Sequence record: MT446415.1
Length of the DNA: 64,000 bases
Direction: 5' to 3' (one strand)
Source: Escherichia virus TH44
Below, piece by piece: positions 6,125 to 63,623 of the stretch. Under the pieces are notes generated by a model. That model ran no database searches and was not told the DNA's origin. It saw only the letters and a list, made by a program, of their open reading frames with translations. Positions within the stretch are counted from its first letter, which is position 1; each line of letters opens with the position of its first letter. The position numbers and the translations under genes were made by a program.

Positions 6125-6723
6125 AATGACTTCTCCATCTCACGGATTAATGCCGAAATAAATGATTCGATATCATTAGGGTCGATTATCTTTATTTCTC
6201 GTTTATATTCATTTTTGCGAATAGCATCTTCATAGATATCTACTGCAGCTAATGGACCTTCATATTGGGGGTACAATTTATTCTTATCACCTTTATCATA
6301 CCAGGTGTACGGATTATCAGGATAAGAAACAAGATTCCAGAATTTTTCACCATCTTCATTTACATGATAAAGAACCTGATTACCACCTATATTCGAATAG
6401 CGTTGAATTGATGCCTGATACGATGATTCTTGTGAACATATCCAACCATAATAAGGGTCATAGATATTATTAAGCATAAGGAGAACCCAATAGAGTTGCG
6501 TGTTCCCATAGAGCTGGTATGCAAGTTCTTCAGGTCTCGGAGCTCCGGCGATGTAATATGTTTTTGGTGTATAATTAACCGCAACCTTATCAAAATAGGC
6601 ACGATAGTTTCTGAAGATGTCAGTCATTGGGATGCTTAAGACGTCTTCTTTCGTTAATGATGCCGAGTTTTTTCTGATTGTTTTTGCATCATAATCAATT
6701 GGGTTAAAAAATGAAAAAAGCAT
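6121..6723 (-). CDS. 53: baseplate wedge protein gp53
   Basis: N-terminus MLFSFFNPIDYDAK resembles T4 gp53 (MLFTFF...); ATG at 6723 with GGAGG 5 nt upstream (track ORF starts at upstream TTG). Confidence 0.88.
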   Translation of the reverse strand: MLFSFFNPIDYDAKTIRKNSASLTKEDVLSIPMTDIFRNYRAYFDKVAVNYTPKTYYIAGAPRPEELAYQLYGNTQLYWVLLMLNNIYDPYYGWICSQESSYQASIQRYSNIGGNQVLYHVNEDGEKFWNLVSYPDNPYTWYDKGDKNKLYPQYEGPLAAVDIYEDAIRKNEYKREIKIIDPNDIESFISALIREMEKSL

Positions 6724-6735
6724 AAAGCCTCCATT

Positions 6736-6743
6736 TATAAATA
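6736..6743 (+). promoter_or_regulatory. T4-type late promoter TATAAATA for gene 4; divergent 7/8 late-like box on the other strand (6754-6761) for gene 53
   Basis: Exact TATAAATA about 28 nt before gene 4 ATG with SD taggagg in between. Confidence 0.6.
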
Positions 6744-6771
6744 AGTATATCAATATTTATTAGGAGGCTAT

Positions 6772-7221
6772 ATGGCATACTCCGGGAAATTTAAGCCCAC
6801 CAATATAGAAAAATATAAGGGCGACTGGAAGAAAATACAATACCGGTCAAGCTGGGAGGCTTGGTTGATGAGATGGCTCGACAATCATCCGAACGTTGTT
6901 CAATGGGGCTCTGAGACTGTGATTATTCCATACTTCTGCAATGCTGAAGGGAAAAAGCGCAGATATTATATGGATTTCTGGGTTAAGTTTGATACAGGGC
7001 AACAGTTCTTTTTTGAAGTTAAGCCGTTAAAAGAAACAAGACCCCCAACCAAACCGGCTAATAATACCACTGCGAGTAAAAAGAGATTTATTAACGAAAT
7101 GTACACCTGGAGCGTTAACTCTGACAAATGGAAAGCTGCACAAGCTACCGCGGATAAGATGGGTATAACTTTCAGGATAATCACTGAAAACTCACTGAAA
7201 AAATTAGGATGGAAAGGATGA
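6772..7221 (+). CDS. 4: head completion protein gp4
   Basis: 149 aa; MAYSGKF...[11 protein letters not shown] resembles T4 gp4. Confidence 0.92.
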
Positions 7222-8042
7222 GTATTTTTACATTTATCAATGAATCTGCAGATAAACCAGGTCCGAAACCCAGTAAATCAGAACAACAATGGGTTGAAAT
7301 AGGGGTTGAATTTTATACAGCAAAAGAAAAGGGAATGACCTCGAAGAAGTTTGCTGAAGAGAAAGGAATCAACTATTCGACCTTTACCAAAAGCATGTCA
7401 AGATATCATTCGAGAATTCAGACTGCTTATAAAGTATCCAAGCTCAAAAAGAAACCTGCTGGTAAACTTACGAAGGCTGAACGTCAGCTGATAATGGTGA
7501 ATAGCTTTAGAAAGAGCATAAGAGATAAGATTGCTAACGAAGGCGCTGCAAGCAACACCAAATCTGCCAGATGGTTCGCTGAGACAATTAAGAAATCAGT
7601 TCGTGGTCACGTAACGGCTAAACCCCAACCGGGTAAGATTTATGCTTATATCTATGATGCAAAGCATAAGGATACTCTTCCGTACTGGGACAAATATCCG
7701 TTAATCATTTATCTTGGGCTAGGTAAGCACAATTTGATGTATGGTTTGAACTTGCACTATATTCCACCGAAGGCACGTCAAGAGTTCCTTGAGGAACTTC
7801 TTAAGCAATATGCTAATACTCCTACGATTACGAACAAGACTCATCTGAAGATTGATTGGTCAAAGGTAAAGGGATTTAAAGGGGCTGACCAGATGATTAA
7901 AGCATATATACCTGGCAATATAAAAGGTACTATCACTGAAATCAAGCCCAGCGACTGGGCAAACGTGGTATTACTCCCCCTTCAGCAGTTCATGTCGAAA
8001 GGCAAAAGATATTCTTCCCAGAAAGTATGGAGAAATTCATAA
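7209..8042 (+). CDS. 2: DNA end protector protein gp2
   Basis: 277 aa ORF in T4 gene-2 position (T4 gp2 is 274 aa); called by synteny and size. Confidence 0.8.
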
Positions 8043-8053
8043 TCTATTATCGG

Positions 8054-8101
8054 TCAGTGTTATTGGTAAGGACAAAAGGTCTAGAACCATTATAACACTG
8101 A
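8054..8101 (+). repeat. 10-bp perfect inverted repeat (tcagtgttat / ataacactga) with 28-nt spacer between genes 2 and 3
   Basis: Read directly from sequence; possible RNA hairpin or protein-binding site. Confidence 0.5.
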
Positions 8102-8127
8102 TTGTTTTAAAGCAAACAAGGTGCACT

Positions 8128-8727
8128 ATGTCAGGTTTATATAATCAAACTAACACGACTAACTTTATATTAGAGGTGAGCGATTCAAACCTCACACAGA
8201 CCTTTAAACTAAACGTTCAAGACGTTACCCTCCCAGGGGTTCACATTCCTGTGACGGATGTTCCTGGCGGAACACAAGGTATAAATCGCTCCAGTCTTCC
8301 TGGTAGTACAATAGAATTCGACCCGCTGATTGTTAACTTTCTGTGTGACAAAGACCTAAGAGCGTGGCTTGACATCTATAAATGGATGCTCTCGCTCAAC
8401 AACTACATCACACACGAATCAAAAGCATGGCATCCGAAGGGTCGTCCCGAAGCGGTCACGCTTCATATCTTAGATAACAACAAGGACAAAATTGTCATGT
8501 CAATCCATTACTATGGAGCATGGCCGTCCGACCTGTCAGAGATTCAGTACTCATATAAAGAAGATTCTGACCCGGCTATCAATGCAACAGCAACTTTTAA
8601 CTTTAAGTCTTTTGCTGTAGAAATTGATGGTATAATAATAGAAGGTAGACCACAGATTGATAGTAATGCAGCAATGCAACAGGAAATCAGGTCTAAGTCA
8701 ATGCATCCATCTATGAGAAACGTATGA
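8128..8727 (+). CDS. 3: tail completion / sheath stabiliser gp3
   Basis: 199 aa ORF in T4 gene-3 position between 2 and 1; called by synteny. Confidence 0.7.
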   Translation: MSGLYNQTNTTNFILEVSDSNLTQTFKLNVQDVTLPGVHIPVTDVPGGTQGINRSSLPGSTIEFDPLIVNFLCDKDLRAWLDIYKWMLSLNNYITHESKAWHPKGRPEAVTLHILDNNKDKIVMSIHYYGAWPSDLSEIQYSYKEDSDPAINATATFNFKSFAVEIDGIIIEGRPQIDSNAAMQQEIRSKSMHPSMRNV

Positions 8728-9400
8728 AATTAATTGCGATTGTGGGTAAAAAACGCAGTGGTAAAGATACGACTGCTGATTATGTTATTAGTCAAAACGG
8801 AACAAAGTGGCAGCTTGCAGGTCCGATTAAAGAAGCGCTTTATAAAGCGTGGATTCGTCAAGACCTGCCACACAATTTGACCCTGGAAAATTTTGATGGA
8901 CAAGGTTATGACCGTGAAAAAACCTTGATAATGAACAACACCGAAGCTCATATTCTTCTGGCTGATGCTCTTGAATGGTTGAAACAACAATACAATCTCG
9001 ACCTTCCGAATCCGGATATGGTTCGTAAAATTATTGAATTTCACACACTAAATAATGTTGAGCCCTGGACAGTTAGACGTTTCATGCAGACCCTTGGAAC
9101 TGACATTGTTTGTACAGAGTTCGACAGCATGTTTTGGATTAAAACTTTTGCCTGCGACTATCTTGACAACCTCTATTCTGGATATAAATATTACGTTGTC
9201 CCAGATGTTCGCCAAAAGAACGAACTTGATTCGCTTCGGGCGATGGGTGCTACAATAATCTTTGTAGAACGCGATGAAGCAAATCATTCTACTGATACAC
9301 ACATTACGGAAGCTGGACTTCCACCACTAGCTAGTGACATTGTTATTAAAAACGATGGCACACTCGAAGAACTTTTTGATAAAATTAATAAGGTAATATA

Positions 9401-9401
<1 letters not shown>
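8724..9401 (+). CDS. 1: deoxynucleoside monophosphate kinase gp1
   Basis: MKLIAIVGKKRSGKDTTADYV P-loop start and ...THITEAGLP...NDGTLEELF resemble T4 gp1. Confidence 0.92.
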
Positions 9402-10092
<691 letters not shown>

Positions 10093-10152
10093 TGTACAAA
10101 TGAGTGTAGGTGCAGTATTATGCACCTACGTCAACGAACAAACGGAGTTAAA

Positions 10153-10485
10153 ATGAACATCAAAACTTACAACGAGTTTTTAGCCGAATCCGCCATCAAT
10201 GAGACCAAATCAATTGATGATAGTGAAGGCTCTCTGAAATTTGGTTTATCCAAAAATGCAGATGGTGTTTTCTTTCAGATTGGTAATGAACGTTTTCAAA
10301 CGTCCAAATATTCCAAAGCTGCAGTTGAAGCTGTCCTGAAATCTGGTGGCAAGTGGAAAGGCAAAGAAGGTACTAAAGAAATTGGTATCGCTGTTGACGG
10401 TGGTATGGCTTATTTTAAAATTGGCGATGAACAATTTATTATGTCTGCTCGCGGGCGTAAAGAACTGGCAAAACTTTATAAATAA
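10153..10485 (+). CDS. CTS-tagged internal-protein-like protein
   Basis: Starts MNIKTYNEFLAES (T4 internal-protein capsid-targeting motif); ATG after ggag; track ORF starts upstream at 10120. Confidence 0.65.
   Translation: MNIKTYNEFLAESAINETKSIDDSEGSLKFGLSKNADGVFFQIGNERFQTSKYSKAAVEAVLKSGGKWKGKEGTKEIGIAVDGGMAYFKIGDEQFIMSARGRKELAKLYK
10477..10484 (+). promoter_or_regulatory. T4-type late promoter TATAAATA
   Basis: Exact octamer overlapping stop of previous gene, 9 nt before the 10494 CTS gene. Confidence 0.5.
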
Positions 10486-10493
10486 GGTTTCTT

Positions 10494-10766
10494 ATGAAAA
10501 CTTTCAATGAATTTTTCAACGAGTCACAACTGAATGAAGAAGTAAAAATTAGTAAAGCAGTCAAATCTATGATTGACAATATCAATCACCTGTATAGCAT
10601 TGACTTGACTGACCATATAACAATTGGTAACAAACGCAACTTTTTCGCGTTTGACATTTCAGAACTTGACCAGAACCAAATTAATAACATTGAGCGTTTT
10701 GCCAATGACAAGGGTCTCCGTCATGAGACGGCTGGTTATAAAAAATATGCAATTTATCTAAAATAG
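10494..10766 (+). CDS. CTS-tagged internal-protein-like protein
   Basis: Starts MKTFNEFFNES. Confidence 0.65.
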   Translation: MKTFNEFFNESQLNEEVKISKAVKSMIDNINHLYSIDLTDHITIGNKRNFFAFDISELDQNQINNIERFANDKGLRHETAGYKKYAIYLK

Positions 10767-10774
10767 GATTTCAA

Positions 10775-11074
10775 ATGCAAACGCTCCATGAATTTTTAGT
10801 AGAAAACAATTACCTGGCAGAAGCAAAAACCTGGCCTCTGGGTCTTCAGAAGAAAAACACTTTCAAATGGGTTGACTTCAAAGGTAAAGGTGACGAAGAA
10901 GATTTTATGCAACTGCGTAAAAATGGTTATACCTTCCTTGACTCCAACTATAACAAAATTACCTCTTTTAGTCAGAAGTCAAGCATTGCCTTCATTGAAA
11001 CTGGTAAGAACTCTCCTAAAGATATTTCTGACGACTTCGCCGCTTATGGTGTAATTCGTGGCGGTAAGATGTAA
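10775..11074 (+). CDS. CTS-tagged internal-protein-like protein
   Basis: Starts MQTLHEFLVEN; C-terminal ...YGVIRGGKM tail shared with the 24785 gene. Confidence 0.6.
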   Translation: MQTLHEFLVENNYLAEAKTWPLGLQKKNTFKWVDFKGKGDEEDFMQLRKNGYTFLDSNYNKITSFSQKSSIAFIETGKNSPKDISDDFAAYGVIRGGKM

Positions 11075-11083
11075 ATAACACAA

Positions 11084-11104
11084 GGGGATAATTATCCCCT
11101 TTTT
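11084..11104 (+). terminator. rho-independent terminator
   Basis: ggggataattatcccc palindrome followed by TTTTT. Confidence 0.7.
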
Positions 11105-11120
11105 ATGGCTTGGAGACAAC

Positions 11121-11363
11121 ATGAAAACTTATCAAACATTTATAACAGAATCTTCTCATGGTATGGAAGTTAAACTTGGTCAAGCCCTTGCTGAAGCTGA
11201 GCGTTTGTTTGCACGCATCAAAGAACTTGCTGATTCCGTAGATGCATCATCTTTTAAAGGTGACCAAGGCAAAGTTAAAGCTCTCCTCGCTCTTTGTTCA
11301 GACGCGGGTGAAATTGCTAAGAATGGCACCAAGATGAAAAAACGTCTGGAAGACTTAAAATAA
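11121..11363 (+). CDS. CTS-tagged internal-protein-like protein
   Basis: Starts MKTYQTFITES. Confidence 0.65.
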   Translation: MKTYQTFITESSHGMEVKLGQALAEAERLFARIKELADSVDASSFKGDQGKVKALLALCSDAGEIAKNGTKMKKRLEDLK

Positions 11364-11393
11364 GTATACGCGATGGGATAACTGCATTATAAT
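11364..11393 (+). promoter_or_regulatory. early-promoter cassette (gtatac-N18-tataat) with gggataa/ttatccc inverted repeat around the -10
   Basis: Sigma70-like spacing; followed by conserved leader tatcccatcaactactggagacaacATG. Confidence 0.55.
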
Positions 11394-11418
11394 TATCCCA
11401 TCAACTACTGGAGACAAC

Positions 11419-11697
11419 ATGAAAACTTATCAAGAATTTATTAACGAATCAATTAGTCACCCGGATATGCTGGAAGACCTGAAAGGATATCTGATGGTTA
11501 AGGCCAAACCGGTTGATGGTGGCGCATTTGAGTTGTTTCTTGTTAAAGGCGAAAACGGTCCTGATAACAAGAAAGTTTCAGCAATGATGTTGACTAAAGG
11601 TTACAAAGTCAGTTCTTCCTGGAATGCTCCATTCACTTACGCGGTAAGCCCTCGTGAACTGAAAAAAGTTAAAGCTGGGCAATATACAAAAATTTAG
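11419..11697 (+). CDS. CTS-tagged internal-protein-like protein
   Basis: Starts MKTYQEFINES. Confidence 0.7.
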   Translation: MKTYQEFINESISHPDMLEDLKGYLMVKAKPVDGGAFELFLVKGENGPDNKKVSAMMLTKGYKVSSSWNAPFTYAVSPRELKKVKAGQYTKI

Positions 11698-11726
11698 TGT
11701 ACGTGATGGGATAACTGTAGTATGAT
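11697..11726 (+). promoter_or_regulatory. early-promoter cassette (gtgtac-N18-tatgat)
   Basis: Same architecture and leader as the 11364 cassette. Confidence 0.55.
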
Positions 11727-11751
11727 TATCCCATCAACTATTGGAGACCAC

Positions 11752-12006
11752 ATGAAAACTTATCAAGAATTTATTACTGAATCTGCAAATACAAAAGTTG
11801 AGTTTGCTTATGTTGGTTCGCCGCGTGGCAGTTTTTCCAATGAGGAATTCCGTCGTTCACTGGACAATTTCATGCAGTTAAGTGCTGAAGTATCGCATGA
11901 TGGTCGTTATGACATCGTTACTATTAGCGGTTCTGAAGACCTTATCAAAAAGTGGCACAAGCAGAAAGATGTTGAGATGCGTTACTATCGTATCCCTAAA
12001 AAATAA
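11752..12006 (+). CDS. CTS-tagged internal-protein-like protein
   Basis: Starts MKTYQEFITES at internal ATG of track ORF 11722. Confidence 0.7.
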   Translation: MKTYQEFITESANTKVEFAYVGSPRGSFSNEEFRRSLDNFMQLSAEVSHDGRYDIVTISGSEDLIKKWHKQKDVEMRYYRIPKK

Positions 12007-12035
12007 GTGTACTTTTAAATGGGATAGTGTATAAT
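12007..12035 (+). promoter_or_regulatory. early-promoter cassette (gtgtac-N17-tataat)
   Basis: Followed by leader tatcccatcaactactgaggagaataaaATG. Confidence 0.55.
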
Positions 12036-12063
12036 TATCCCATCAACTACTGAGGAGAATAAA

Positions 12064-12249
12064 ATGAAACGTTGCGAATTAATTAGAAATGTTACTGCCC
12101 TTGTTGCTGTTACCACTTTTGGTTTTAACATGTTTGCTGGCTTTATGTTGAATATGCTTTCAACTTCTGAGAATATAATCTCTTTAGTAGTTGCATTTTT
12201 AATTGGTTCAATCTCTTTCGTTATGGATAAAATCTCTAAAGGTGAGTAA
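12064..12249 (+). CDS. small hydrophobic protein
   Basis: 61 aa, predicted membrane helices; cassette-driven. Confidence 0.55.
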   Translation: MKRCELIRNVTALVAVTTFGFNMFAGFMLNMLSTSENIISLVVAFLIGSISFVMDKISKGE

Positions 12250-12250
12250 A

Positions 12251-12640
12251 ATGTATAAAGTGTATGCGGATTATCAGGCAAATCCATCTGAAAAACCAGA
12301 TTGTCAAATTGGGTGGGCGCATGACACCCTGCTTGAAGCGGTAGATGAAGCTCAAAAATTAGGGTATAGTTATGTAGATATTGTTCAACCAAATGGAACA
12401 GTTATTACTCTTGAAGAATTCAAGAATATCAAAACAAACTTTTTGCTCTTTGCTGGTGATAGCTATTATCCTCGTGGCGGTTATGCTGACTTAATTGCAA
12501 AAGCTGCGACTGAAGATGAACTGCGTGATATCATTAAAGAAAACGAGAAGAAGCCTTGTTATGGTTCCAACCGTTTTGACTGGTGGCAGATTGTTAATGC
12601 CAATACGCATACTATTGTTGATGAAGGAACATGCGAATGA
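12251..12640 (+). CDS. hypothetical protein
   Basis: ATG after ggtgagtaaa; track ORF starts at 12203. Confidence 0.55.
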   Translation: MYKVYADYQANPSEKPDCQIGWAHDTLLEAVDEAQKLGYSYVDIVQPNGTVITLEEFKNIKTNFLLFAGDSYYPRGGYADLIAKAATEDELRDIIKENEKKPCYGSNRFDWWQIVNANTHTIVDEGTCE

Positions 12641-13113
12641 ATATCAAATTTGGTCAGACCATCCCTAAAGGTTATGTGATTGAAATTGAAACCTGGGAAA
12701 ATGATGGTGACAACTATAAAACCCAAACGGTATTTGGCGTAGAAGAACAAGAAATCCAACAGTACAAATATATCCTGGAACTTTTCCATGGTTCGCATTG
12801 CAATAACCGCAATAAATGTGGTAATTCAGAATGGGATGTGGTTAAACACTTGGTTATCGCCCACATTGCATCTGGTGTAAAATCTGGCCAGTTGACTTAT
12901 GAATTTTTGGATAAAGTTCTTGGTATCCAAGACTTAGAAGCCTTGCTGAATGATGATGAAGAAGCATACTATTTGAATGAAGCCCTTACTGAGCTCCTTG
13001 GTATGGCTTGCGAATATGATGGCGATTTCATGCGTGTAATTTCTTATGTTAAGCTATATATAATCGAAGAAGAAATCCGAATCCCATCTGTTAAAGCGCT
13101 TGATATGCTTTAA
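12631..13113 (+). CDS. hypothetical protein
   Basis: 160 aa ORF, start overlaps previous stop. Confidence 0.6.
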   Translation: MRMNIKFGQTIPKGYVIEIETWENDGDNYKTQTVFGVEEQEIQQYKYILELFHGSHCNNRNKCGNSEWDVVKHLVIAHIASGVKSGQLTYEFLDKVLGIQDLEALLNDDEEAYYLNEALTELLGMACEYDGDFMRVISYVKLYIIEEEIRIPSVKALDML

Positions 13114-13234
13114 CAAAAACGCGTTATTATTAATAAGTACCCTCTATTACCAAAGGTTCTTCCCTCAAAGAACCTTTCATAATAGCATGTGCTATTAATC
13201 AAACTTACTTTACTTAATTTTACTTGAGGTGTTT

Positions 13235-13504
13235 ATGTTAGTATTAAAATTAGCTTTTTACGACCCTAAAACAAAGACAACCACTACCAAACGTTGCTCT
13301 ATCTCGTATGAGTGTCAATTTGGCGAAATTCAGCATCCAACAGGCGAAACCTTTATGTCAATTGGTTGTTCAACATTCAATAAAGTCAAATTAATCCCGT
13401 TGGTTAATACGGCGGCTTATCTGGTTGCACCAGAAGAAATGACTTATCATACAATTCAGCATATGGTTAAAGATGATAATGCTCCCGCTGGATTTGTAAT
13501 TTAA
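13235..13504 (+). CDS. hypothetical protein
   Basis: ATG 7 nt after gagg (track ORF begins at GTG 13229). Confidence 0.5.
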   Translation: MLVLKLAFYDPKTKTTTTKRCSISYECQFGEIQHPTGETFMSIGCSTFNKVKLIPLVNTAAYLVAPEEMTYHTIQHMVKDDNAPAGFVI

Positions 13505-13509
13505 TTTTA

Positions 13510-13583
13510 GGCCCTGTAGCTCAATTGGTTAGAGCATCCGGCTCATAACTGGCAGGTTTCCGGTTCAAGTCCGGATGGGGCCA
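13510..13583 (+). tRNA. tRNA with CAT anticodon (Met or lysidine-type Ile2)
   Basis: Manual cloverleaf: acceptor ggccctg/tggggcc, D arm gctc..gagc, anticodon loop ctCATaa, T arm tccgg-ttcaagt-ccgga; resembles E. coli tRNA-Ile2. Confidence 0.8.
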
Positions 13584-13585
13584 CC

Positions 13586-13662
13586 CGGGGTGTAGCTCAA
13601 TTGTATAGAGCAACGGTCTTCTAAACCGTAGGTTGTGGGTTAGAATCCCACCACCCCGACCA
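13586..13662 (+). tRNA. tRNA-Arg (anticodon TCT), CCA encoded
   Basis: Manual cloverleaf: acceptor cggggtg/caccccg, anticodon stem acggt/accgt, loop ctTCTaa, T arm gtggg-ttagaat-cccac, then A+CCA. Confidence 0.88.
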
Positions 13663-13677
13663 ATTACTGAGGATATT

Positions 13678-13917
13678 ATGGTTATTAGTGAATCATATGC
13701 AGTTATGGATATAACCAGCAACGAGCTGGTTTATAGCTTTGATGAGTTTGACGAAAATGATAAACAAGTCCCATGGTTTGCATTAACTGCTCCACCTGAA
13801 CATAATAAATATCTAAGTTTCCCGACTCGCAGACTAGCAACAAATTTTATGGAATTCAATGACCTTGATTCCAATTATAAGGTTGTTAAAGTCAAATTAG
13901 CTATTACAATTGAATGA
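13678..13917 (+). CDS. hypothetical protein
   Basis: ATG after gagga; track ORF 13633 would overlap the tRNA. Confidence 0.55.
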   Translation: MVISESYAVMDITSNELVYSFDEFDENDKQVPWFALTAPPEHNKYLSFPTRRLATNFMEFNDLDSNYKVVKVKLAITIE

Positions 13918-14110
13918 GAAACCGGGTCGCTACCGGTAAGTCGTCGGACTGATGTTCCCTGGAGTATAGTTCCTCCCACGGTTTTACTGTGTTCTGGTTC
14001 TTTACTATCACAGCTGAAACGGCGCACCCTTTTAACGGAGTTTTTCCAGAGCGGACGGTGCGTCCGGTAGTACGAGAAATCAGAGCGGGTGGTGCATCCG
14101 GTACTATGGA
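13918..14110 (+). ncRNA. candidate small stable RNA (ORF-free, stem-rich)
   Basis: About 190 nt with no ORF; repeated GC-rich stems (accgggtcgctaccggt, ggacggtgcgtccggtag, gggtggtgcatccggtac); T4 has small stable RNAs in its tRNA region. Confidence 0.3.
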
Positions 14111-14111
14111 A

Positions 14112-14119
14112 TATAAATA
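14112..14119 (+). promoter_or_regulatory. T4-type late promoter TATAAATA
   Basis: Exact octamer 32 nt before the 14151 CTS-like gene. Confidence 0.55.
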
Positions 14120-14150
14120 TTAACAACAACCCTAATAATGGAAAAACAAA

Positions 14151-14534
14151 ATGCTTACATATGCAGAATTTTTAAATCGCAATACCATCACTGAATCCGT
14201 ACTGACTGAAGCTGGCAAATTTTCTTTAGTGGCTCCAGAAAAAGCCGGTGTTTCAATTGGTGACCGTGTTATGTTCAAGAAACCAGTTAATGGCGTTTCT
14301 TGGGGTATCGTAACTGGGTTTGGCATCAAAGCTAAAGACGTTAAAAACGCCGCAGCACCTGGTGCTAAACTGGCTGGTTCCAAAGTTTCAACTTATATGG
14401 TTCGCCCTAAACAGTCTCCAGGTAATGGTGCTGCTGACTGGGTTGGTGCTCCAATCGAAATCGCTCGTGATAAATTCTTGAACATCACTGACCGTGCCAA
14501 CGAACGCGCTGCAATGGCATTCGCTCGCGGATAA
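14151..14534 (+). CDS. CTS-like small protein
   Basis: Starts MLTYAEFLNRN (variant of the MKTYQEF tag); late promoter upstream. Confidence 0.6.
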   Translation: MLTYAEFLNRNTITESVLTEAGKFSLVAPEKAGVSIGDRVMFKKPVNGVSWGIVTGFGIKAKDVKNAAAPGAKLAGSKVSTYMVRPKQSPGNGAADWVGAPIEIARDKFLNITDRANERAAMAFARG

Positions 14535-14571
14535 GAACACTTGCCTTGCAGGTGGAACCCCGACAAGGTAT

Positions 14572-14600
14572 AGCCCCTTCCGAAAGGTTGGGGCTTTTTT
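14572..14600 (+). terminator. rho-independent terminator
   Basis: agcccc-ttccgaaaggtt-ggggct hairpin followed by TTTTTT. Confidence 0.75.
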
Positions 14601-14623
14601 ATAAATCAACTAAAGAGAAACGT

Positions 14624-15178
14624 ATGAAACTGTTAAAATATTTGAGTTGGATTCTGTTAGTTCCGCTGGATTTTATCTCCATGATTCTGGCCGTTATCCT
14701 GGCTCCATTTGTAGTTCCGTTCCATAATAAAAAGACTGGTAAACTTCCGTTCGGGTTTGATTGGATGATGACTTATGATAATCCGATTGATGGTGACCGT
14801 GGCCATGTCAAACGTTGGTCAAAAATCCGAAAATGGCCATTAGGTGTTTACTTCCAACGAGTAGCCTGGCTCTGGCGAAACAAAGCATACAATTTTGCTT
14901 ACCACAAGCTCGGCCGTGATTGCAATTCAGAATTCCATTATAAAGGTAATCCGGATGTTGAATCGGGCTCCCCTGATAAAGCTCATCATGGTTGGCTCTT
15001 TATGTGGACTGATAATGCATGGGGTGTTTTTGCTTCTGTTCCTTATCTTAAGGTCGGTGGAATCACCTTTTATCTGCGTGTTTATTGTGGCTGGAAGCTC
15101 AAGAGTCTTCTGTCCCGACCTATCCCTAAGGCTATGCTCGCCTTCCATATAAATCCGTTCCGCTTTTATAAGAACTAA
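14624..15178 (+). CDS. membrane protein
   Basis: Starts MKLLKYLSWILLVPLDF... after the terminator; hydrophobic N-terminus. Confidence 0.6.
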   Translation: MKLLKYLSWILLVPLDFISMILAVILAPFVVPFHNKKTGKLPFGFDWMMTYDNPIDGDRGHVKRWSKIRKWPLGVYFQRVAWLWRNKAYNFAYHKLGRDCNSEFHYKGNPDVESGSPDKAHHGWLFMWTDNAWGVFASVPYLKVGGITFYLRVYCGWKLKSLLSRPIPKAMLAFHINPFRFYKN

Positions 15179-15179
15179 C

Positions 15180-15201
15180 AGCCCGCATTGCGGGCTTTTT
15201 T
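15180..15201 (+). terminator. rho-independent terminator
   Basis: agcccgc-attg-cgggct followed by TTTTT. Confidence 0.75.
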
Positions 15202-15238
15202 ATACCCCGAATAAATTTGAAATTTTCTTCAAAAAGTA

Positions 15239-15268
15239 GTGTACATCCGAATTGACCCGGCGCATAAT
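15239..15268 (+). promoter_or_regulatory. early-promoter cassette (gtgtac-N18-cataat)
   Basis: Followed by leader gattccatactgagttac...ggagaaataaaATG. Confidence 0.55.
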
Positions 15269-15319
15269 GATTCCATACTGAGTTACACACTGAATCAAAC
15301 AAAACTTTGGAGAAATAAA

Positions 15320-15745
15320 ATGAACTTTCTGACCCTGACCTCTGCATTCTCTGTTACCCGCATCACCAACAAAATGGTTGCTGACGAAGTATGTGAAATC
15401 TGCATTCGTGAAGATGCACTTATCCATCTGACTTCAACCCAGATTGTTGCCATTGCCAAGTCCCTTAATTCTGAACTGAAGGTAAACACCAAACAGTCAA
15501 AAGAATCTATCATTGAATTAATCCAAGCTGAAATGATTGAATTCCCAATTGAAGAAGTTAAAGAAGAAAAAATCCAGTCCAAATCTGGTAATGCTCGTGA
15601 CATTTGCTTCCAGGCATTTGCAGAAATTGATATGAATGATAATGCAGCTCGTCGCGCTCTGATTGATGTTCTGGTTACCACCCATGATATCAAAAAGACT
15701 GTTGTTCAGTCATATGCTTCCAACTTCCGCAAAGCTCAAAAATAA
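15320..15745 (+). CDS. hypothetical protein
   Basis: Starts MNFLTLTSAF after the cassette leader; C-terminal module shared with the 16198 gene. Confidence 0.6.
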   Translation: MNFLTLTSAFSVTRITNKMVADEVCEICIREDALIHLTSTQIVAIAKSLNSELKVNTKQSKESIIELIQAEMIEFPIEEVKEEKIQSKSGNARDICFQAFAEIDMNDNAARRALIDVLVTTHDIKKTVVQSYASNFRKAQK

Positions 15746-23023: not shown

Positions 23024-23468
23024 GAAAGTGAAGGAATTATCTGCTGGCATTATTTTCATGACCGAAGATAAAGAGTTATTCATGGGTCGTGTGACTGGTT
23101 CTCGTAAACCAGGTATGCCTGCGCACAAATGGGACATCCCTAAGGGTCATGTTGAAGCTGGCGAATCACCGATTGAAGCTGCTATCCGTGAAACCGAAGA
23201 AGAAACTGGGTTTACCCAATACGACCCGGCATTCTTAAAAGACCTCGGTGAATTCCGTTATTCAGATAATAAAAACCTTCACCTGTTTTTATATACGGTT
23301 CCGGTTGAGCATGAACAATTCAGACATAGTAAATGCTCTGCATATCATACCTTCCCGGATGGTAGTACGGTCCCAGAGTTCGATGCATTTGCTCTGATTA
23401 AACCGAGCCAATGGCAGTATGTGATGGGCAAATCGATGTACAAGGTAATGACTCAAATTTTCGGATAA
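23013..23468 (+). CDS. nudE: Nudix hydrolase NudE
   Basis: 151 aa; Nudix box GHVEAGESPIEAAIRETEEETG; directly upstream of e as T4 e.1/nudE. Confidence 0.85.
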   Translation: MMSKKVKELSAGIIFMTEDKELFMGRVTGSRKPGMPAHKWDIPKGHVEAGESPIEAAIRETEEETGFTQYDPAFLKDLGEFRYSDNKNLHLFLYTVPVEHEQFRHSKCSAYHTFPDGSTVPEFDAFALIKPSQWQYVMGKSMYKVMTQIFG

Positions 23469-23493
23469 TAAATACCCCTATATAAGGGGGTAT
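23467..23493 (+). promoter_or_regulatory. late-promoter-like box (aataaata) plus RBS-sequestering hairpin of the lysozyme gene
   Basis: Hairpin atacccc-tatataag-ggggtat ends 1 nt before the e ATG and contains its SD; 7/8 late box overlaps the 5' arm. Confidence 0.55.
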
Positions 23494-23994: not shown

Positions 23995-24264
23995 ATGAAA
24001 ACGTATCAAGAATTTTTGGCTGAATCTGTATTAAATGAATCAGATGAAAGTCGCATGGCATTTTTAGCTAAGAAAGAAGGCTTTGAGTTTACTTCTATTA
24101 AAAAAGTTAATGGAACTTCATTTAAAGTTGGTGATTGGACCTTTGGTAACAAAGGAAATGGCCAGTGGCAAATTGTAGATAAATCTGGCAAAGAAGTGGA
24201 TTATTTGTTTAATCAGAAATTGGGTGATATCGCTAAACTTATGGGTCAATACTCTAAGAAATGA
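23995..24264 (+). CDS. CTS-tagged internal-protein-like protein
   Basis: Starts MKTYQEFLAES. Confidence 0.7.
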   Translation: MKTYQEFLAESVLNESDESRMAFLAKKEGFEFTSIKKVNGTSFKVGDWTFGNKGNGQWQIVDKSGKEVDYLFNQKLGDIAKLMGQYSKK

Positions 24265-24293
24265 TGTACATCTCCAAACGATAGGGTTATAAT
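24264..24293 (+). promoter_or_regulatory. early-promoter cassette (atgtac-N18-tataat)
   Basis: Leader ccctatcaactacggagaataaacATG before denV. Confidence 0.5.
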
Positions 24294-24319
24294 GACCCTA
24301 TCAACTACGGAGAATAAAC

Positions 24320-24736
24320 ATGACTCGTATTAATTTAACCCTGGTATCTGAACTTGCCGACCAACATCTTATGGCTGAATACCGTGAACTTCCTCGCGTG
24401 TTTGGTGCGGTTCGTAAGCATGTGCAAAATGGTAAAAAGGTTTCTGACTTTAAAATCCCATCATCTTTTCTTTTAGGGACTGGTCATGTCACCTTCTTTT
24501 ATGATAAACTTTTGTTCCTTAAAAACCGCCATCAAGAACTTATTGCGGAATGTTTAAAGCGAGGGTTTAACATAAAAGATATTTCTACCCAGGATTTAAA
24601 TGATATTCCTGATGAATGGAAGAATGATTATCAACCATCAATCTGGTCAATTGAAATCAGTCAAGCCAGACTGAATGAGAAAATTTCTCAAAAGCCTACC
24701 TGGTACAAATACTATGGGAAAGCTGTGTACGCTTAA
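24320..24736 (+). CDS. denV: endonuclease V (pyrimidine-dimer DNA glycosylase)
   Basis: 138 aa; [35 protein letters not shown]...[13 protein letters not shown], near-identical to T4 DenV. Confidence 0.96.
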
Positions 24737-24754
24737 TTAAAAAGGTTGTATAAT
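24725..24754 (+). promoter_or_regulatory. early promoter (gtgtac-N18-tataat)
   Basis: Overlaps denV 3' end; TG immediately before the -10. Confidence 0.5.
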
Positions 24755-24784
24755 GATTTTATCAACCAAACAATGGAATATAAA

Positions 24785-25048
24785 ATGAAAACTTATCAAG
24801 AATTTATTACTGAATCTGCCAAAGCTCCTGCTGGTTCTTTTAAAGTTCGCGCCTTCGCGGGTGATGCTGAAGACTTTGGCACCATGAAGCGTAACGGTTA
24901 TTCTTTCTTTGGCGGAGATGGTAAAGAAATTGTAACCTATGCAAAACGTCGCGAAATCGCATTTGTGGTTGCTGGTAAGAAAGTTGATGTTGACGATATT
25001 GAATGGGACTTTGAGACCTTTGGTATTGTTTCTGGCGGTAAAGCATAA
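24785..25048 (+). CDS. CTS-tagged internal-protein-like protein
   Basis: Starts MKTYQEFITES at internal ATG of track ORF 24746; C-terminal ...FGIVSGGKA tail shared with the 10775 gene. Confidence 0.7.
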   Translation: MKTYQEFITESAKAPAGSFKVRAFAGDAEDFGTMKRNGYSFFGGDGKEIVTYAKRREIAFVVAGKKVDVDDIEWDFETFGIVSGGKA

Positions 25049-25050
25049 CT

Positions 25051-25079
25051 GTTTACTTTATGATGGGATAGTGTATAAT
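25051..25079 (+). promoter_or_regulatory. early-promoter cassette (GTTTAC-N17-TATAAT)
   Basis: Best match to a T4 early promoter in the window; gggata/ttatccc repeat; conserved leader. Confidence 0.6.
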
Positions 25080-25107
25080 TATCCCATCAACTACTGAGGA
25101 GAATAAA

Positions 25108-25305
25108 ATGTTAACTTATAAAGAATTTATGAAAGAAGTTAAAAAACTTAAAAAGACTTCTGGTGATGTTAAAATTGAAATCCATGGCCAAACCGTAAAT
25201 GCGGTAGCGGATGGTCAGGCATTAGTTCTTTATAGTGATAAAGACCAAGAATTTCGCGAAGCACAAAAGAAAAAATTTACCGTGTGGCTCAAAAAAGCTG
25301 TTTAA
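25108..25305 (+). CDS. CTS-like small basic protein
   Basis: Starts MLTYKEFMKEV. Confidence 0.6.
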   Translation: MLTYKEFMKEVKKLKKTSGDVKIEIHGQTVNAVADGQALVLYSDKDQEFREAQKKKFTVWLKKAV

Positions 25306-25313
25306 GGACCAAT

Positions 25314-25613
25314 ATGAAAACTTATCAAGAATTTATCACAGAAGCCAAAGCCCCTAAAGCATTCCAAATTGGAGTCCAAGGCAATTTAGACCAACAATAT
25401 GTTGATGCTATTGTAGCAAGCCTCGGTAAACAGGGTGTACAAGTGGATTTGGTTGATTTTACTAAAGGCAATACTTTTAATATTGTCACATCTAAAGGTT
25501 CTTTAGCTAAAGTTAAAAAGGCCTTTGGTGTAGCACAAGCATATGAAATCGACCACTCTGAATTGGAAAATAAAGGTCGCCAGAACACAATTAAAGGTTC
25601 TGGTTCTTTCTAA
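25314..25613 (+). CDS. CTS-tagged internal-protein-like protein
   Basis: Starts MKTYQEFITEA at internal ATG of track ORF 25284. Confidence 0.7.
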   Translation: MKTYQEFITEAKAPKAFQIGVQGNLDQQYVDAIVASLGKQGVQVDLVDFTKGNTFNIVTSKGSLAKVKKAFGVAQAYEIDHSELENKGRQNTIKGSGSF

Positions 25614-30265: not shown

Positions 30266-30541
30266 ATGGTATACAAGGTTTGGACGTATATCTCTATTTT
30301 GATATTCCTGGTTTTGGTTTTTGTTCCGATGCAACAAGACCAGGAAAGGTATGAGCGCGAAGTTGAAATTGTTGCAAGTACCTATCACTCGTTCAACAAA
30401 GAGTGCCCCAATAAAAACGGAATAAGCCTGCAACAAGCATACTATTTGTCAACGGTCACCAGCCCAAAACAACGGGTCTGGGTTGAACGTAATTTTGCAA
30501 GTTTATTTTCAGAGTACTGCTTTAATTTTAAACGTCTATAA
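30266..30541 (+). CDS. membrane-anchored small protein
   Basis: N-terminal TM helix. Confidence 0.55.
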   Translation: MVYKVWTYISILIFLVLVFVPMQQDQERYEREVEIVASTYHSFNKECPNKNGISLQQAYYLSTVTSPKQRVWVERNFASLFSEYCFNFKRL

Positions 30542-30613
30542 ATACAGTTACTAACTAGTATTCCGCTATGTTAAGGCTGCAAAGCGTAATCATGACCAAC
30601 AATAGGAGTCCTT

Positions 30614-30907
30614 ATGGACCTTATTCGAGGACTTTCATTAAGTCTAATAATCCTGGGCTGTTTAGGCCCAAATCTGTCCTCTGCAACAGAGGGGAAGTTT
30701 ACCCAATATGCAGATAGTGCGATGAAGATTTATTCGCAATTCAAAGAACCAAGCGTGCACCAATCCGAACAGTTCTGGGCGTTTATCAAGACTGAATGGA
30801 ACAACAAAAGCCAATGCGAAACAGAAATCACCTGCAAAAGCGATGGTAAAGCTGCGGCGAGAGAGTACGCTAAATTAATGAAGGTAAAATTGGAAGATGA
30901 AATTTGA
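30614..30907 (+). CDS. rI: lysis-inhibition regulator RI-like protein
   Basis: 97 aa with signal-anchor-like N-terminus; ...SEQFWAFIKTEW...YAKLMKVKLEDEI resembles remembered T4 RI; next to tk. Confidence 0.6.
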   Translation: MDLIRGLSLSLIILGCLGPNLSSATEGKFTQYADSAMKIYSQFKEPSVHQSEQFWAFIKTEWNNKSQCETEITCKSDGKAAAREYAKLMKVKLEDEI

Positions 30908-41343: not shown

Positions 41344-41472
41344 TATGGATGCTCTTATTACGGTATTTTGGGCCGGAGTTGCTTTATTCGGATTGTTGTT
41401 AGTGCTAAGTTGCACTGCTAAACTATTAGGATATTAATAAATACCCTTATCTAATAATGGTAAGGGTTGATT

Positions 41473-41946
41473 ATGTTGTTGACTGGCAAATTATACAAAG
41501 AAGAAAAACAAAAACTTTATGATGCACAAGCTGGTAAGTGTCCAATTTGCCACCGTGATTTGGACTCCGATGTTCAGGCCAACCATCTTGACCATGACCA
41601 CGAATTGAACGGGCCAAAAGCTGGTAAGGTTCGCGGGTTACTATGCAATCTGTGCAATGGAACAGAAGGACAAATGAAGCATAAGTTCAGCCGTTCGGGT
41701 CTAAAAGGTCGCAATGTTGACTACCTGGAATGGTTAGAGAGTTTGCTTGTCTATCTGAAATCTGATTATACCGAAAATAATATTCACCCTAATTTTGTGG
41801 CAGACAAAGCCAAAGAGTTCGGTCGCCTAGGGAAAGAAGAAATGATTCAGGAAATGCTTTTGAACGGCATGACTTATAATGAATCTGATACGAAGCCTAA
41901 ACTACAAGCTTCATTTAAAAAACAACTGAGGAAATCACTTAAATGA
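41473..41946 (+). CDS. 49: endonuclease VII (Holliday junction resolvase)
   Basis: MLLTGKLYKEEKQKLYDAQAGKCPIC...HLDHDHELNGPKAGKVRGLLCNLCN...FKKQLRKSLK, near-identical to T4 gp49. Confidence 0.95.
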   Translation: MLLTGKLYKEEKQKLYDAQAGKCPICHRDLDSDVQANHLDHDHELNGPKAGKVRGLLCNLCNGTEGQMKHKFSRSGLKGRNVDYLEWLESLLVYLKSDYTENNIHPNFVADKAKEFGRLGKEEMIQEMLLNGMTYNESDTKPKLQASFKKQLRKSLK

Positions 41947-45089: not shown

Positions 45090-45647
45090 ATGAACGAAAT
45101 TAAATTAACCAAGAATAACTATGTAAATAATAAAGAGCTTTTGAAAGCTATTTCGGAGTGGAAACAGAAGCTGAATGCGAACACTGACCCGAACAAAATT
45201 ATTCGCCAGAACGATGTTATTGGTCTGGCGATTATGCTTATAGCCGAAGGTCTTAGCAAACGTTTTAACTTCTCCGGATATACCCAATCCTGGAAGCAAG
45301 AAATGATAGCGGACGGAATTGAGGCCGCAATAAAAGGTCTTCACAACTTCGACGAAACAAAATACGATAATCCACATGCTTACATAACAATGGCTTGCTT
45401 CAATGCTTTCGTTCAGCGTATCAAAAAAGAACGTAAAGAAATGGCAAAGAAATATAGCTACTTCGTCCATAACGTATATGATTCACGTGACGACGATATG
45501 GTGGCTCTGGCTGATGAAACATTTATCCAGGACATCTATGACAAAATGACACAGTACGAATCCTCCTTAGTTAAAGTGCCAGGGTCTGATAAGAGCACCA
45601 AAGATAAAGAGGGTGATTTGGATTTTTTATATGGAACATCAATTTGA
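45090..45647 (+). CDS. 55: late-transcription sigma factor gp55
   Basis: 185 aa; [12 protein letters not shown]...[41 protein letters not shown]..., near-identical to T4 gp55. Confidence 0.96.
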
Positions 45648-50670: not shown

Positions 50671-51366
50671 ATGAAATTCTCTAAAGACACCATCGCAGTT
50701 TTGAAAAACTTCACCTCCATCTACTCTGGCATTATGCTTAAACCAGGTAATACCATCCTGACTCGTTCCGTAACTGGAGCGTCATATGGCGAATCCGAAA
50801 TCAATGATACAATTGACTTTGAAGCTGCGATTTATGACCTGAACGGCTTCTTAAGTATTCTGGGCCTGGTAACTGACCAAGCTGAAGTATCTCTGGCTGA
50901 AGATGCATCGAATATCATTATCAAAGACCAACGTTCAACGATTCACTGGCCTGCGGCAGACCCGAGCACTATCGTGTTCCCTGCTAAGAAGATTCCTTTC
51001 CCGGTAGCTAAGGTTATCTTCGACCTGAAAGGCAGTGACCTGCAGCAGCTTCTGCGTGTGGCTGGCGGTTTGTCTCTGGATACTTTTGCAATCACCAACA
51101 AAGACGGTAAGATTGTTATCCATGGTTATAACCAGCTCGAAGATAAAGAATTAGCGCGTCCATTGTATTCCCTGGTGTGTGGCGATTACGAAGGCGATGC
51201 AGCGTTTAAATTTATCATTAACAAACTGAACATGAAAATGATTCCGGCTGATTACCGTGTTATGCTTTGGGCGAAAGATGATAAATTTGCTACGAAGTTT
51301 GAAGGCACACAAGCAAGCTATGTGATTGCAATGGAACAAGGCTCTAGCCACGAATTCCAAGATTAA
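50671..51366 (+). CDS. 45: sliding clamp gp45
   Basis: MKFSKDTIAVLKNF...FWPAADPSTIVFP...LQQLLRV, near-identical to T4 gp45. Confidence 0.96.
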   Translation: MKFSKDTIAVLKNFTSIYSGIMLKPGNTILTRSVTGASYGESEINDTIDFEAAIYDLNGFLSILGLVTDQAEVSLAEDASNIIIKDQRSTIHWPAADPSTIVFPAKKIPFPVAKVIFDLKGSDLQQLLRVAGGLSLDTFAITNKDGKIVIHGYNQLEDKELARPLYSLVCGDYEGDAAFKFIINKLNMKMIPADYRVMLWAKDDKFATKFEGTQASYVIAMEQGSSHEFQD

Positions 51367-62292: not shown

Positions 62293-62586
62293 ATGAAAAA
62301 GTTATTAATCGCAGCAATTCTTACCGTAGCATCATGTGGTACAGCTCCAGTTACTGCTGGACTTGATAAAGACCTTTGTGAGTGGTCTATGACTGCGGAC
62401 CAGACTGATGTTGAACACCAGATTTATGCTGACATCATGAACATTACTAAACGTGACCGCCCAGATATGGTTAAAGAAGTATCTGACCAACTGGCTTCTG
62501 GTGACGTTATGCAGTATAACTATGTTCTGTATTGCGATGCTTCATTTGACAACAGCAAGATTGTTCAATGGGTTACAGGTGAATAA
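62293..62586 (+). CDS. lipoprotein
   Basis: Signal peptide with lipobox MKKLLIAAILTVASC. Confidence 0.6.
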   Translation: MKKLLIAAILTVASCGTAPVTAGLDKDLCEWSMTADQTDVEHQIYADIMNITKRDRPDMVKEVSDQLASGDVMQYNYVLYCDASFDNSKIVQWVTGE

Positions 62587-62587
62587 A

Positions 62588-63028
62588 ATGATTAACAGAA
62601 ATTTAGTTATCAAAAAACTTCGTTGTAAAAATCAAAATGCACAAGCATACAGGATGTTTTGGAGCGACGAGCCCATTCAATACCTGGGTTATTTTCTTGT
62701 TGATAGTGATAATAGAATTACGTTTGCTCATAAACTTCTTAACAAAGAATTAAACCATTGGCAAGAACTTATTGCGGTCAAGTCTAAATTATTTTCGCGC
62801 AATACAATACACCAATTGGTTTATTTTTTCGCTGATGGTATTCCTGACAAGGTTGAGTTTGACGGGTTTGAATTTAAAGACATCAACCCTGATAATGAAT
62901 TGAATGACAGTATTGTTAATATGGGTATCCCGGGTAAGTACATCAAAAACAGTCTTTTGAAACTTCTGGAAACCCCTGTATATTCAGTTGACGACCAGAT
63001 TTTTAATGCCTTCATGAAGCGAGATTAA
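62588..63028 (+). CDS. hypothetical protein
   Basis: ATG 1 nt after previous stop (track ORF 62453 is another gene's region); ends DDQIFNAFMKRD. Confidence 0.55.
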   Translation: MINRNLVIKKLRCKNQNAQAYRMFWSDEPIQYLGYFLVDSDNRITFAHKLLNKELNHWQELIAVKSKLFSRNTIHQLVYFFADGIPDKVEFDGFEFKDINPDNELNDSIVNMGIPGKYIKNSLLKLLETPVYSVDDQIFNAFMKRD

Positions 63029-63184: not shown

Positions 63185-63400
63185 ATGGTAATGAATGGAC
63201 CGTATGAAGATACTCGTGGCTACCCATTTGATAAAAAGAATGTGCGCGATTGTGCAGTCTGGATAACTGGAAACCCTGAAATTGGGGTCATGTTATCTAC
63301 TGAAGCAAATGACATTCTGGAAGCGGGCTGGGTCAAAGCTCAAGAACCGCCTACTGATATTGATGACCAGATTTTTAATGCTTTCATGAAGCGAGGTTAA
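63185..63400 (+). CDS. hypothetical protein
   Basis: 71 aa; ends DDQIFNAFMKRG. Confidence 0.55.
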   Translation: MVMNGPYEDTRGYPFDKKNVRDCAVWITGNPEIGVMLSTEANDILEAGWVKAQEPPTDIDDQIFNAFMKRG

Positions 63401-63404
63401 TATG
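63362..63404 (+). repeat. 43-bp direct repeat, copy 2
   Basis: tgatgaccagatttttaatgctttcatgaagcgaggttaatATG; 40/43 identical to copy 1. Confidence 0.7.
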
Positions 63405-63623
63405 TTTGTTTTGACACAATTCTCTAAAGCAATATATAGTTACACTTGTCAGTGGGAAGTCTTTATTGATACTCCATCTCCCAAGTATGGAGTTTTTGGA
63501 CGAGTAACTACTCAAGCCTACGTTGCACGACCGACTAAACGTCAGATTCGTAAACTTAAAAAGGCGCATCGTCAACTGATTAAAAGAAGGGAACAATATG
63601 AGTGCAATGTGTACGGGCTCTAA
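63402..63623 (+). CDS. small basic protein
   Basis: 73 aa, Lys/Arg-rich C-terminus. Confidence 0.5.
   Translation: MFVLTQFSKAIYSYTCQWEVFIDTPSPKYGVFGRVTTQAYVARPTKRQIRKLKKAHRQLIKRREQYECNVYGL

Follow-up and report, generated by a model that had tools for sequence, protein, structure and literature searches.

Late-type octamers before capsid-targeting genes

Which genes do the late-type octamers of Escherichia virus TH44 serve, and does late transcription say anything about whether a gene product is packaged? The question arises in a 64,000-nucleotide stretch of this phage (sequence record MT446415.1; the whole stretch is called the window here), in which three open reading frames (ORFs) of the capsid-targeting sequence (CTS) type are each preceded by an exact copy of the octamer TATAAATA:

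10477-10484, plus strand: exact TATAAATA, made up of the two final sense codons of ORF 10150-10485 and part of its stop (TAT AAA TAA, Tyr-Lys-stop)
14112-14119, plus strand: exact TATAAATA in non-coding DNA, followed by the A+T-rich segment TTAACAACAA
63785-63792, plus strand: exact TATAAATA, with the TAA stop of an upstream 63-aa ORF at octamer positions 3-5

An original prediction, made from the letters alone, had named these octamers as late promoters, and their coordinates and exactness hold, with gaps of 9, 31 and 16 nt to the ATGs at 10494, 14151 and 63809, respectively (gene starts here are those of our own heuristic ORF caller, in place of a curated annotation). The ORFs behind them do begin in the CTS manner, with the N-termini MKTFNEFFNE (10494), MLTYAEFLNR (14151) and MKTFKDFINE (63809). 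In T4, the late promoter is an 8-bp TATAAATA box at -13 to -6, without a -35 element (PMC1524935, PMC2988020). The equation of the octamer with this element agrees with that definition, with usage in phage VR7, and with the presence in the window of two parts of the late machinery, gp33 being encoded outside it:

45090-45647, plus strand: gp55, late sigma factor, which recognizes the octamer (phrog_234, E 8.4e-68)
50671-51366, plus strand: gp45 sliding clamp, the late-transcription activator (Pfam gp45-slide_C and DNA_PPF)

The reading preferred here, with a probability of roughly 0.65, is that the octamers are T4-type late elements, that those at 14112 and 63785 are working promoters, that the one at 10477 does not serve ORF 10494, and that the CTS class is not defined by late promoters. 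The elements would be read by host RNA polymerase with gp55, aided by gp33 and the clamp gp45, and transcription would start 6 nt after the last A of the octamer. T4-type late promoters, internal protein (IP) loci and early cassettes are familiar features of T4-like phages; the novelty lies in two lineage-specific instances, a third having been rejected.

The case begins with placement. All six exact octamers in the window lie on the plus, coding strand, and four of them fall 5-45 nt before a same-strand start codon, as against 44 of 425 (10.4%) for the other 55 octamers of A5T3 composition. For start-proximal placement, TATAAATA thus ranks first of the 56 composition-matched octamers (binomial P=0.0015); when the test is confined to plus-strand controls, the background rises to 15.6% and P to 0.0068.

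Phage VR7, of the same genus, provides a calibration. Its structural region (49.9 kb) holds 18 exact copies of TATAAATA, each oriented with downstream late genes, 16 along the plus-strand structural genes and two along the minus-strand genes 26 and alt. Twelve of the 18 lie 17-52 nt from genes 9, 13, 18, 19.1, 19, 20, 22, 24, uvsW, 51, 26 and alt, and in 3 of these 12 the predicted start is a T. Of the 50 late sites listed for T4, 32 match exactly and 9 carry A at -13, and the DNA just downstream of the box is usually A+T-rich (PMC2988020); the VR7 box before 19.1, with the G+C-rich segment CGCGCA downstream, is an exception. The shortest precedent found for the distance from box to ATG is 13 nt, at gene e of T4 (TATAAATA). 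Promoter annotation is absent from the T4 RefSeq record.

The box at 63785 and gene 61.1

Directly behind the 63785 box is a small gene of the T4 repertoire:

63809-63976, plus strand: gene 61.1 homologue, 55 aa (phrog_1823, function unknown)

The predicted late start of the box is a purine, A63798, and the transcript would open with an 11-nt leader, AAGGGGGTGTT, that contains the ribosome-binding site of 61.1 (AAGGGGG). Neither a sigma-70 -35 element nor a MotA box was read upstream of the box.

Within the 61.1 family, the exact octamer occurs in five different upstream contexts. Their spacers are wholly different, yet the upstream stop always occupies octamer positions 3-5, and the codon before it may be GTA, ATA or CTA. 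Most of the other contexts carry one- or two-mismatch forms (GATAAATA, CATAAATA, ATTAAATA, GTTAAATA). Among 13 contexts of less than 80% mutual identity, 12 have a TAAATA core 12-27 nt from the ATG, against a background of 3.6% per context (P ~6e-17, a value inflated by the common ancestry of the contexts); the one exception is the T4 genus, where 61.1 abuts 61.2 (TAAtATG). That the 63785 box would act as the late promoter of gene 61.1 is strongly supported by this comparison.

The neighborhood of 61.1 may itself have been rearranged. In T4, a single 61.2 gene is translationally coupled to 61.1. In the window, two ORFs (62453-63028 and 63185-63400) have C-termini nearly identical to the C-terminal peptide of T4 gp61.2 (...DDQIFNAFMKRD/G), and two small ORFs (63402-63623 and 63598-63789) stand between these 61.2-like genes and 61.1. 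The arrangement suggests duplication and insertion at the 61.2-61.1 junction, and 61.1 may have a promoter of its own in the window because the two extra ORFs split it from the 61.2-like genes.

The box at 14112 and its cassette

The 14112 box lies at the head of a compact module, flanked on the left by a stable RNA gene:

13914-14031, plus strand: rnaD homologue (T4 stable RNA), from BLAST against T4T
14151-14534, plus strand: orphan ORF, 127 aa, with the CTS-like start MLTYAEFLNRNTITE
14572-14601, plus strand: intrinsic terminator AGCCCCTTCCGAAAGGTTGGGGCT followed by U6 (-16.5 kcal/mol, z -2.75)

Octamer, ORF and terminator together make a self-contained cassette. The segment downstream of the box, TTAACA, is A+T-rich in the manner of late promoters, and the predicted start is a purine, A14125, followed by a 26-nt leader that includes the ribosome-binding site of ORF 14151. 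A short late unit would thus run from about A14125 through ORF 14151-14534 and end at the terminator. No sigma-70 -35 element or MotA box was read upstream of the box, and a promoter scan of 6500-15500 listed no site that overlaps it.

The CTS-like start of ORF 14151 has R instead of E at position 10, with I-T-E at positions 13-15. The ORF is confined to 15 near-identical Gaprivervirus phage records and, outside these, has no match in Pfam, PHROGs, NCBIfam, the PDB or a search of 5.8 billion proteins. The left boundary of the module is the rnaD homologue, ending at about 14031, and the 3' flank of T4 rnaC, ACACTTGCCTTGCAG, recurs at about 14538-14552, between the ORF and the terminator. Since this flank follows directly after ORF 14151, the module of spacer, late box and ORF replaces rnaC of T4. 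Directly upstream of the box, at 14047-14106, a sequence of 26 nt is repeated in direct orientation (CAGAGCGGACGGTGCGTCCGGTAGTA and CAGAGCGGGTGGTGCATCCGGTACTA); the copies share 85% identity, are separated by 34 nt and resemble neither an early promoter nor a MotA box.

The box at 10477

At 10477, the octamer is followed by two CTS-type ORFs and a putative end of the unit:

10494-10766, plus strand: internal head protein gene, CTS-type, MKTFNEFFNE (phrog_7673 'internal head protein', E 2.5e-56)
10775-11074, plus strand: next CTS-type ORF, MQTLHEFLVEN (phrog_2667), with its own AGGA ribosome-binding site
11082-11108, plus strand: hairpin AAGGGGATAATTATCCCCTT with TTTTTAT behind it, a likely 3' terminus for the unit, the palindrome being listed by the hairpin scan on the minus strand only

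The predicted late start, T10490, is a pyrimidine and leaves a leader of 4 nt before the AUG of ORF 10494, and the AAGG ribosome-binding site of that ORF (10484-10487) lies upstream of the predicted transcript. The 9-nt gap is below that of every gene-proximal late box examined, whether in VR7 or at T4 gene e. With so short a leader, devoid of a ribosome-binding site, the box cannot serve ORF 10494 in the usual way. The original prediction had each box drive the CTS gene behind it; this probably stands for the well-placed boxes at 14112 and 63785 and fails at 10477. The segment downstream of the 10477 box, AGGTTT, is A+T-rich in part.

Homologues of ORF 10150-10485 in four other genera end in Phe-Lys-stop (TTT/TTC AAA/AAG stop) without the octamer, and in phage PM2 the same junction, also before a CTS gene, reads gTTTAAATAAggttcaaaATG; a single TTT to TAT change would therefore create the box. 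(Three close relatives of the upstream ORF came from IMG/VR, and the more distant homologues from GenBank records.) No box precedes the homologues of ORF 10494 in other phages, which have early cassettes or an abutting gene instead.

A possible role remains for the 10477 box, although we doubt it: it may be an active late promoter for the second CTS ORF, 10775-11074, rather than for ORF 10494. If the box fires, its proximity to ORF 10494 would preclude a translatable leader there, and it would serve ORF 10775 as far as a terminator near 11100 (11082-11108). Such a role is compatible with the preferred reading. The box is exact, on the coding strand and retained in all close relatives, ORF 10775 has a CTS-like start and its own AGGA site, the hairpin and T-run follow it (with the strand reservation given above), and T as a start has its precedent in VR7. 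Yet the octamer is wholly accounted for by the Tyr-Lys-stop codons and is missing from more distant homologues of both flanking genes, and by a rough estimate about 0.2 genes ending in TATAAATAA are expected per such window, so that a chance origin is not unlikely.

CTS genes, early cassettes and timing

The window holds 12 CTS-type ORFs, most of which sit behind early promoter/stem-loop cassettes, in accordance with the mixed timing that had been proposed for the class. The first of these cassettes is representative:

10093-10129, plus strand: early-type promoter TGTACA-17-TATTAT overlapping the stem-loop GTAGGTGCA...TGCACCTAC, before the first IP gene

Similar cassettes precede 11419, 11752, 24785 and 25108, and in all of these, as in the one before 10150, the -10 element is in or beside the stem-loop. 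They correspond to the promoter-early stem-loop (PeSL)-like elements described for T-even IP loci (Repoila 1994 as cited in Arbiol 2010, PMC2839356; Comeau 2014, PMC4122927), and they are of the sigma-70, early kind, unlike late promoters. PeSL-like cassettes account for the timing of most CTS genes, but not for the three boxes. Most CTS genes would then be expressed from their early cassettes together with read-through from late promoters upstream; the late supply of the two IP clusters would come from the box at 6736 (gene 4), perhaps that at 9183, and the one at 23467 (gene e).

The IP genes of the window are of the same kind as T4 ipI, ipII and ipIII, occupying the same pair of variable loci, one behind 57B and one behind e, with the same N-terminal MKTYQEFIxE motif and, in several cases, early cassettes. 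They depart from the T4 pattern in two respects: the late box of one IP gene is spaced unworkably, and ORF 14151, with a late box of its own, lacks an early cassette. In T4 itself, ipI, ipII and ipIII have early promoter/stem-loop cassettes and no exact octamer upstream, and IPI, IPII and IPIII fall in the 'early-RNA, late-protein' class in time-resolved data (PMC9697503 supplement).

A broader claim, which we consider improbable, is that all three octamers drive their adjoining CTS genes and that packaged proteins in general are marked by a proximal late promoter. Proximal exact octamers do occur more often ahead of CTS-type ORFs (3 of 12) than ahead of the other ORFs in the window (1 of 134; Fisher P=0.0017), and in VR7 the gene for the packaged protein Alt has an exact box 25 nt upstream. 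The association weakens, however, to 2 of 12 against 4 of 134 (P=0.077) when A(-13) variants are included and 10477, with its 4-nt leader and excluded ribosome-binding site, is removed. Among 64 distinct CTS-ORF contexts surveyed at related loci, a box within 110 nt accompanies few classic IP genes, most of which show an early promoter/stem-loop cassette or an abutting preceding gene. The T4 IP genes, which lack the box and are transcribed early, also speak against it. Alt, moreover, is a large enzyme (an ADP-ribosyltransferase) whose packaging is demonstrated, whereas the ORF 14151 product and gp61.1 are candidate virion proteins.

It had also been argued that late expression independently supports capsid targeting. 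This support proves weak, given that the proven CTS proteins IPI, IPII and IPIII of T4 do without the octamer; the presence of a late promoter can speak no more than mildly for packaging. A proximal late box is neither needed for packaging, as the T4 IP genes illustrate, nor sufficient, as at 10477; such a box is best judged by its distance to the ribosome-binding site and by its conservation.

As a further observation, GGAG, the target of the RegB endoribonuclease (from the annotation of the T4 record), occurs in the ribosome-binding sites of several CTS genes behind early cassettes, at 11105-11120, 11403-11418, 11736-11751 and 25092-25107 (cttGGAGacaac, ctgaGGAGaataaa). RegB cutting at these motifs could conceivably shorten the early translation window of these genes.

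Points against the preferred reading

Several observations weigh against the preferred reading. The number of octamers is at the chance level: on both strands of the window there are 6 exact copies against 5.08 +/- 2.47 expected, a count reached by 42 of 100 shuffles, and tolerance of one mismatch gives 112 sites where 118 are expected, with no enrichment. Two exact copies, at 9183 and 30537, sit 210 and 69 nt from the next start, and together with the chance-level count they imply that an exact match alone is no proof of function. Three of the six (10477, 30537 and 63785) overlap a TAA stop codon, an overlap that biases A+T-rich words of this kind toward gene junctions.

Other difficulties concern the two boxes singly. 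In T4, 61.1 has TATGAATA, only 9 nt from the ATG, and its RNA is classed as early (PMC9697503 supplement); in the proteome of infected cells, T4 gp61.1 went undetected (PMC9697503). The shared ancestry of the 61.1 contexts, noted above, tempers their statistics. The stretch after the 63785 box, GCGGAA, is G+C-rich and thus atypical, although the VR7 19.1 box offers a precedent. At 14112, conservation is uninformative because ORF 14151 is found only in near-identical genomes, and the case there is the architecture of the cassette. Finally, every start site given is a prediction and, like promoter activity and timing, is deduced from the sequence, placement and conservation of the boxes and the presence of gp55 and gp45. 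The exact 5' ends predicted at 14125 and 63798 are testable.

Taken to the extreme, the chance-level count, the upstream stops within three of the six octamers, and a mild enrichment of other TAA-containing permutations near gene starts would make the octamers chance A+T-rich words or TAA by-products at tight gene junctions with no working promoter among them, an account that has little to recommend it when TATAAATA is first of its 56 matched words for start proximity and invariably on the coding strand, the 61.1 motif is kept in nearly all diverged contexts with the octamer always completed despite the varying codon before the stop, and the same motif marks late genes across the VR7 structural region.

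gp61.1 and the major capsid protein

The conserved late box of the 61.1 family is of added interest in view of the likeness of its product to gp23. Residues 2-46 of gp61.1 align with residues 57-101 of T4 gp23 (44% identity, pairwise E 2e-10), and among all PDB sequences searched gp23 is its sole relative (E 8.9e-5). In 5vf3_A, the chain of mature gp23*, the first residue lies two positions ahead of the aligned IGGD, so that Glu10|Asp11 of gp61.1 corresponds to the gp23 maturation site, Glu65|Ala66. The gp23-like segment covers both the site that gp21 cleaves and the N-arm of mature gp23*, and a basic tail comes after it. In the 10-residue N-terminal CTS motif, an aromatic residue at position 4 and Phe at 7 are reported to serve targeting, and Ile/Leu at 8 and Glu at 10 to serve gp21 cleavage (PMC9026906). 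All four positions are satisfied in gp61.1 (MKTFKDFINE), and they coincide with F59, F62, L63 and E65 of gp23; the CTS of ORF 10494 (MKTFNEFFNE) has Phe at position 8.

The family is widespread, with at least 1261 T4-like phage records, and its members are all annotated as hypothetical, none with a Pfam family. In more distant T4-like phages, the same peptide forms the C-terminal third of a conserved protein of 154-160 aa, in which ...PLFE|DMVAGD precedes the peptide and a basic tail follows it. A structure model of the 154-aa long form (mean predicted local distance difference test score, pLDDT, 60.8) has a helical N-terminal domain and a disordered gp23-like part, and a Foldseek search of this model against the PDB gave nothing with E<1. 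The long form has no similarity to T4 61.2, and a fusion with that gene was rejected. No co-variation signal was seen between gp61.1 and the phage's own gp23, as might be expected from a gp23 N-arm that is nearly identical in T4 and VR7. No paper on gp61.1 function was found in the literature searched.

Speculatively, and with the odds rather against it, the 61.1 family could represent a late-expressed, free-standing copy of the gp23 cleavage site and N-arm; the CTS as such would then imitate the propeptide end of gp23 that docks on the prohead core and protease, and gp61.1 would be a decoy of the capsid N-arm that is either packaged or modulates maturation. Two predicted late products are candidates for virion proteomics: the widespread gp61.1, which resembles the major capsid protein in its cleavage site and N-arm, and the product of the orphan ORF 14151.

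Other late-type boxes in the window

Beyond the three octamers considered so far, the window contains further exact or A(-13) boxes:

6736-6743, plus strand: exact TATAAATA, 28 nt before gene 4 (head completion)
6754-6761, minus strand: A(-13) variant AATAAATA, 30 nt before the gene 53 ATG at 6723
9183-9190, plus strand: exact TATAAATA inside gene 1 (Tyr-Lys-Tyr), 210 nt before 57A, status uncertain
23467-23489, plus strand: AATAAATA 20 nt before gene e, then the hairpin CCCCU-AUAUA-AGGGG over the ribosome-binding site
30537-30544, plus strand: exact TATAAATA, 69 nt before rI, with an upstream ORF stop at positions 3-5
41436-41466, plus strand: AATAAATA 29 nt before gene 49, then an 8-bp hairpin over the ribosome-binding site (-10.5 kcal/mol, z -3.4)

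The 6736 box has the same arrangement as in T4, where an octamer lies 26 nt upstream of gene 4, and the divergent late-promoter pair of genes 4 and 53 is common to the window and T4. Gene 1 of T4 also holds an exact octamer, at a non-homologous codon (121 vs 154), and the two gene 1 octamers are either a convergence on an internal 57A promoter or chance. At 9163-9192, the gene 1 octamer of the window overlaps a sigma-70-like TTGACA-18-AATATT with a perfect TTGACA.

A hairpin over the ribosome-binding site is a known design of T4 genes e and 49. A late start inside the hairpin before e or 49 of the window would unmask the ribosome-binding site, and the e promoter at 23467 would supply the four CTS genes at 23995-25613 as well. 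The gp55/gp33/gp45-dependent late promoters of T4 e and 49 share the octamer, strand logic and very short leaders of the window's boxes, and the gaps of the 61.1 box (16 nt) and of the 14112 box (31 nt) are in the same range. The window's own e and 49 combine AATAAATA with a ribosome-site hairpin, whereas T4 e has the exact TATAAATA. Unlike the promoters of T4 e and 49, the 63785 and 14112 boxes are predicted from sequence, and the former has a G+C-rich downstream segment. A ribosome-site hairpin switch was also considered for 63785, 14112 and 10477 and rejected: no hairpin was found across the predicted start at any of the three, and folding did not surpass that of shuffled sequences (z ~0 for the two long constructs).

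The phage and its gene layout

Over the region 9000-15500, identity is 98% with Escherichia phage TH41 and 96-98% with other Gaprivervirus phages (Tevenvirinae, T4-like). The plus-strand gene order of the window is that of the T4 'early' strand:

up to 6753, minus strand: genes of gp5 and gp53
6772 to 10092, plus strand: genes 4, 2, 3, 1, 57A and 57B
10150 to 12006, plus strand: cluster of small ORFs with CTS-like N-termini
13510-13662, plus strand: two tRNAs
from 23495, plus strand: lysozyme gene e, then four more CTS ORFs (23995-25613)
30614-30907, plus strand: rI, antiholin
41473-41946, plus strand: gene 49, endonuclease VII
after gp55, plus strand: genes 46, 45, 44, 62, regA, 43, uvsX, 40 and 41, then 61.1 at 63809

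In an Rfam search of 13300-14300, only the two tRNAs scored above threshold, rnaD having no Rfam family. Several of these elements recur together in a phage of 121,442 bp (IMGVR_UViG_2974739009), which has the long 61.1-family form, an rnaD-like segment and a CTS gene of the IP type that shares 71% identity with ORF 10494.

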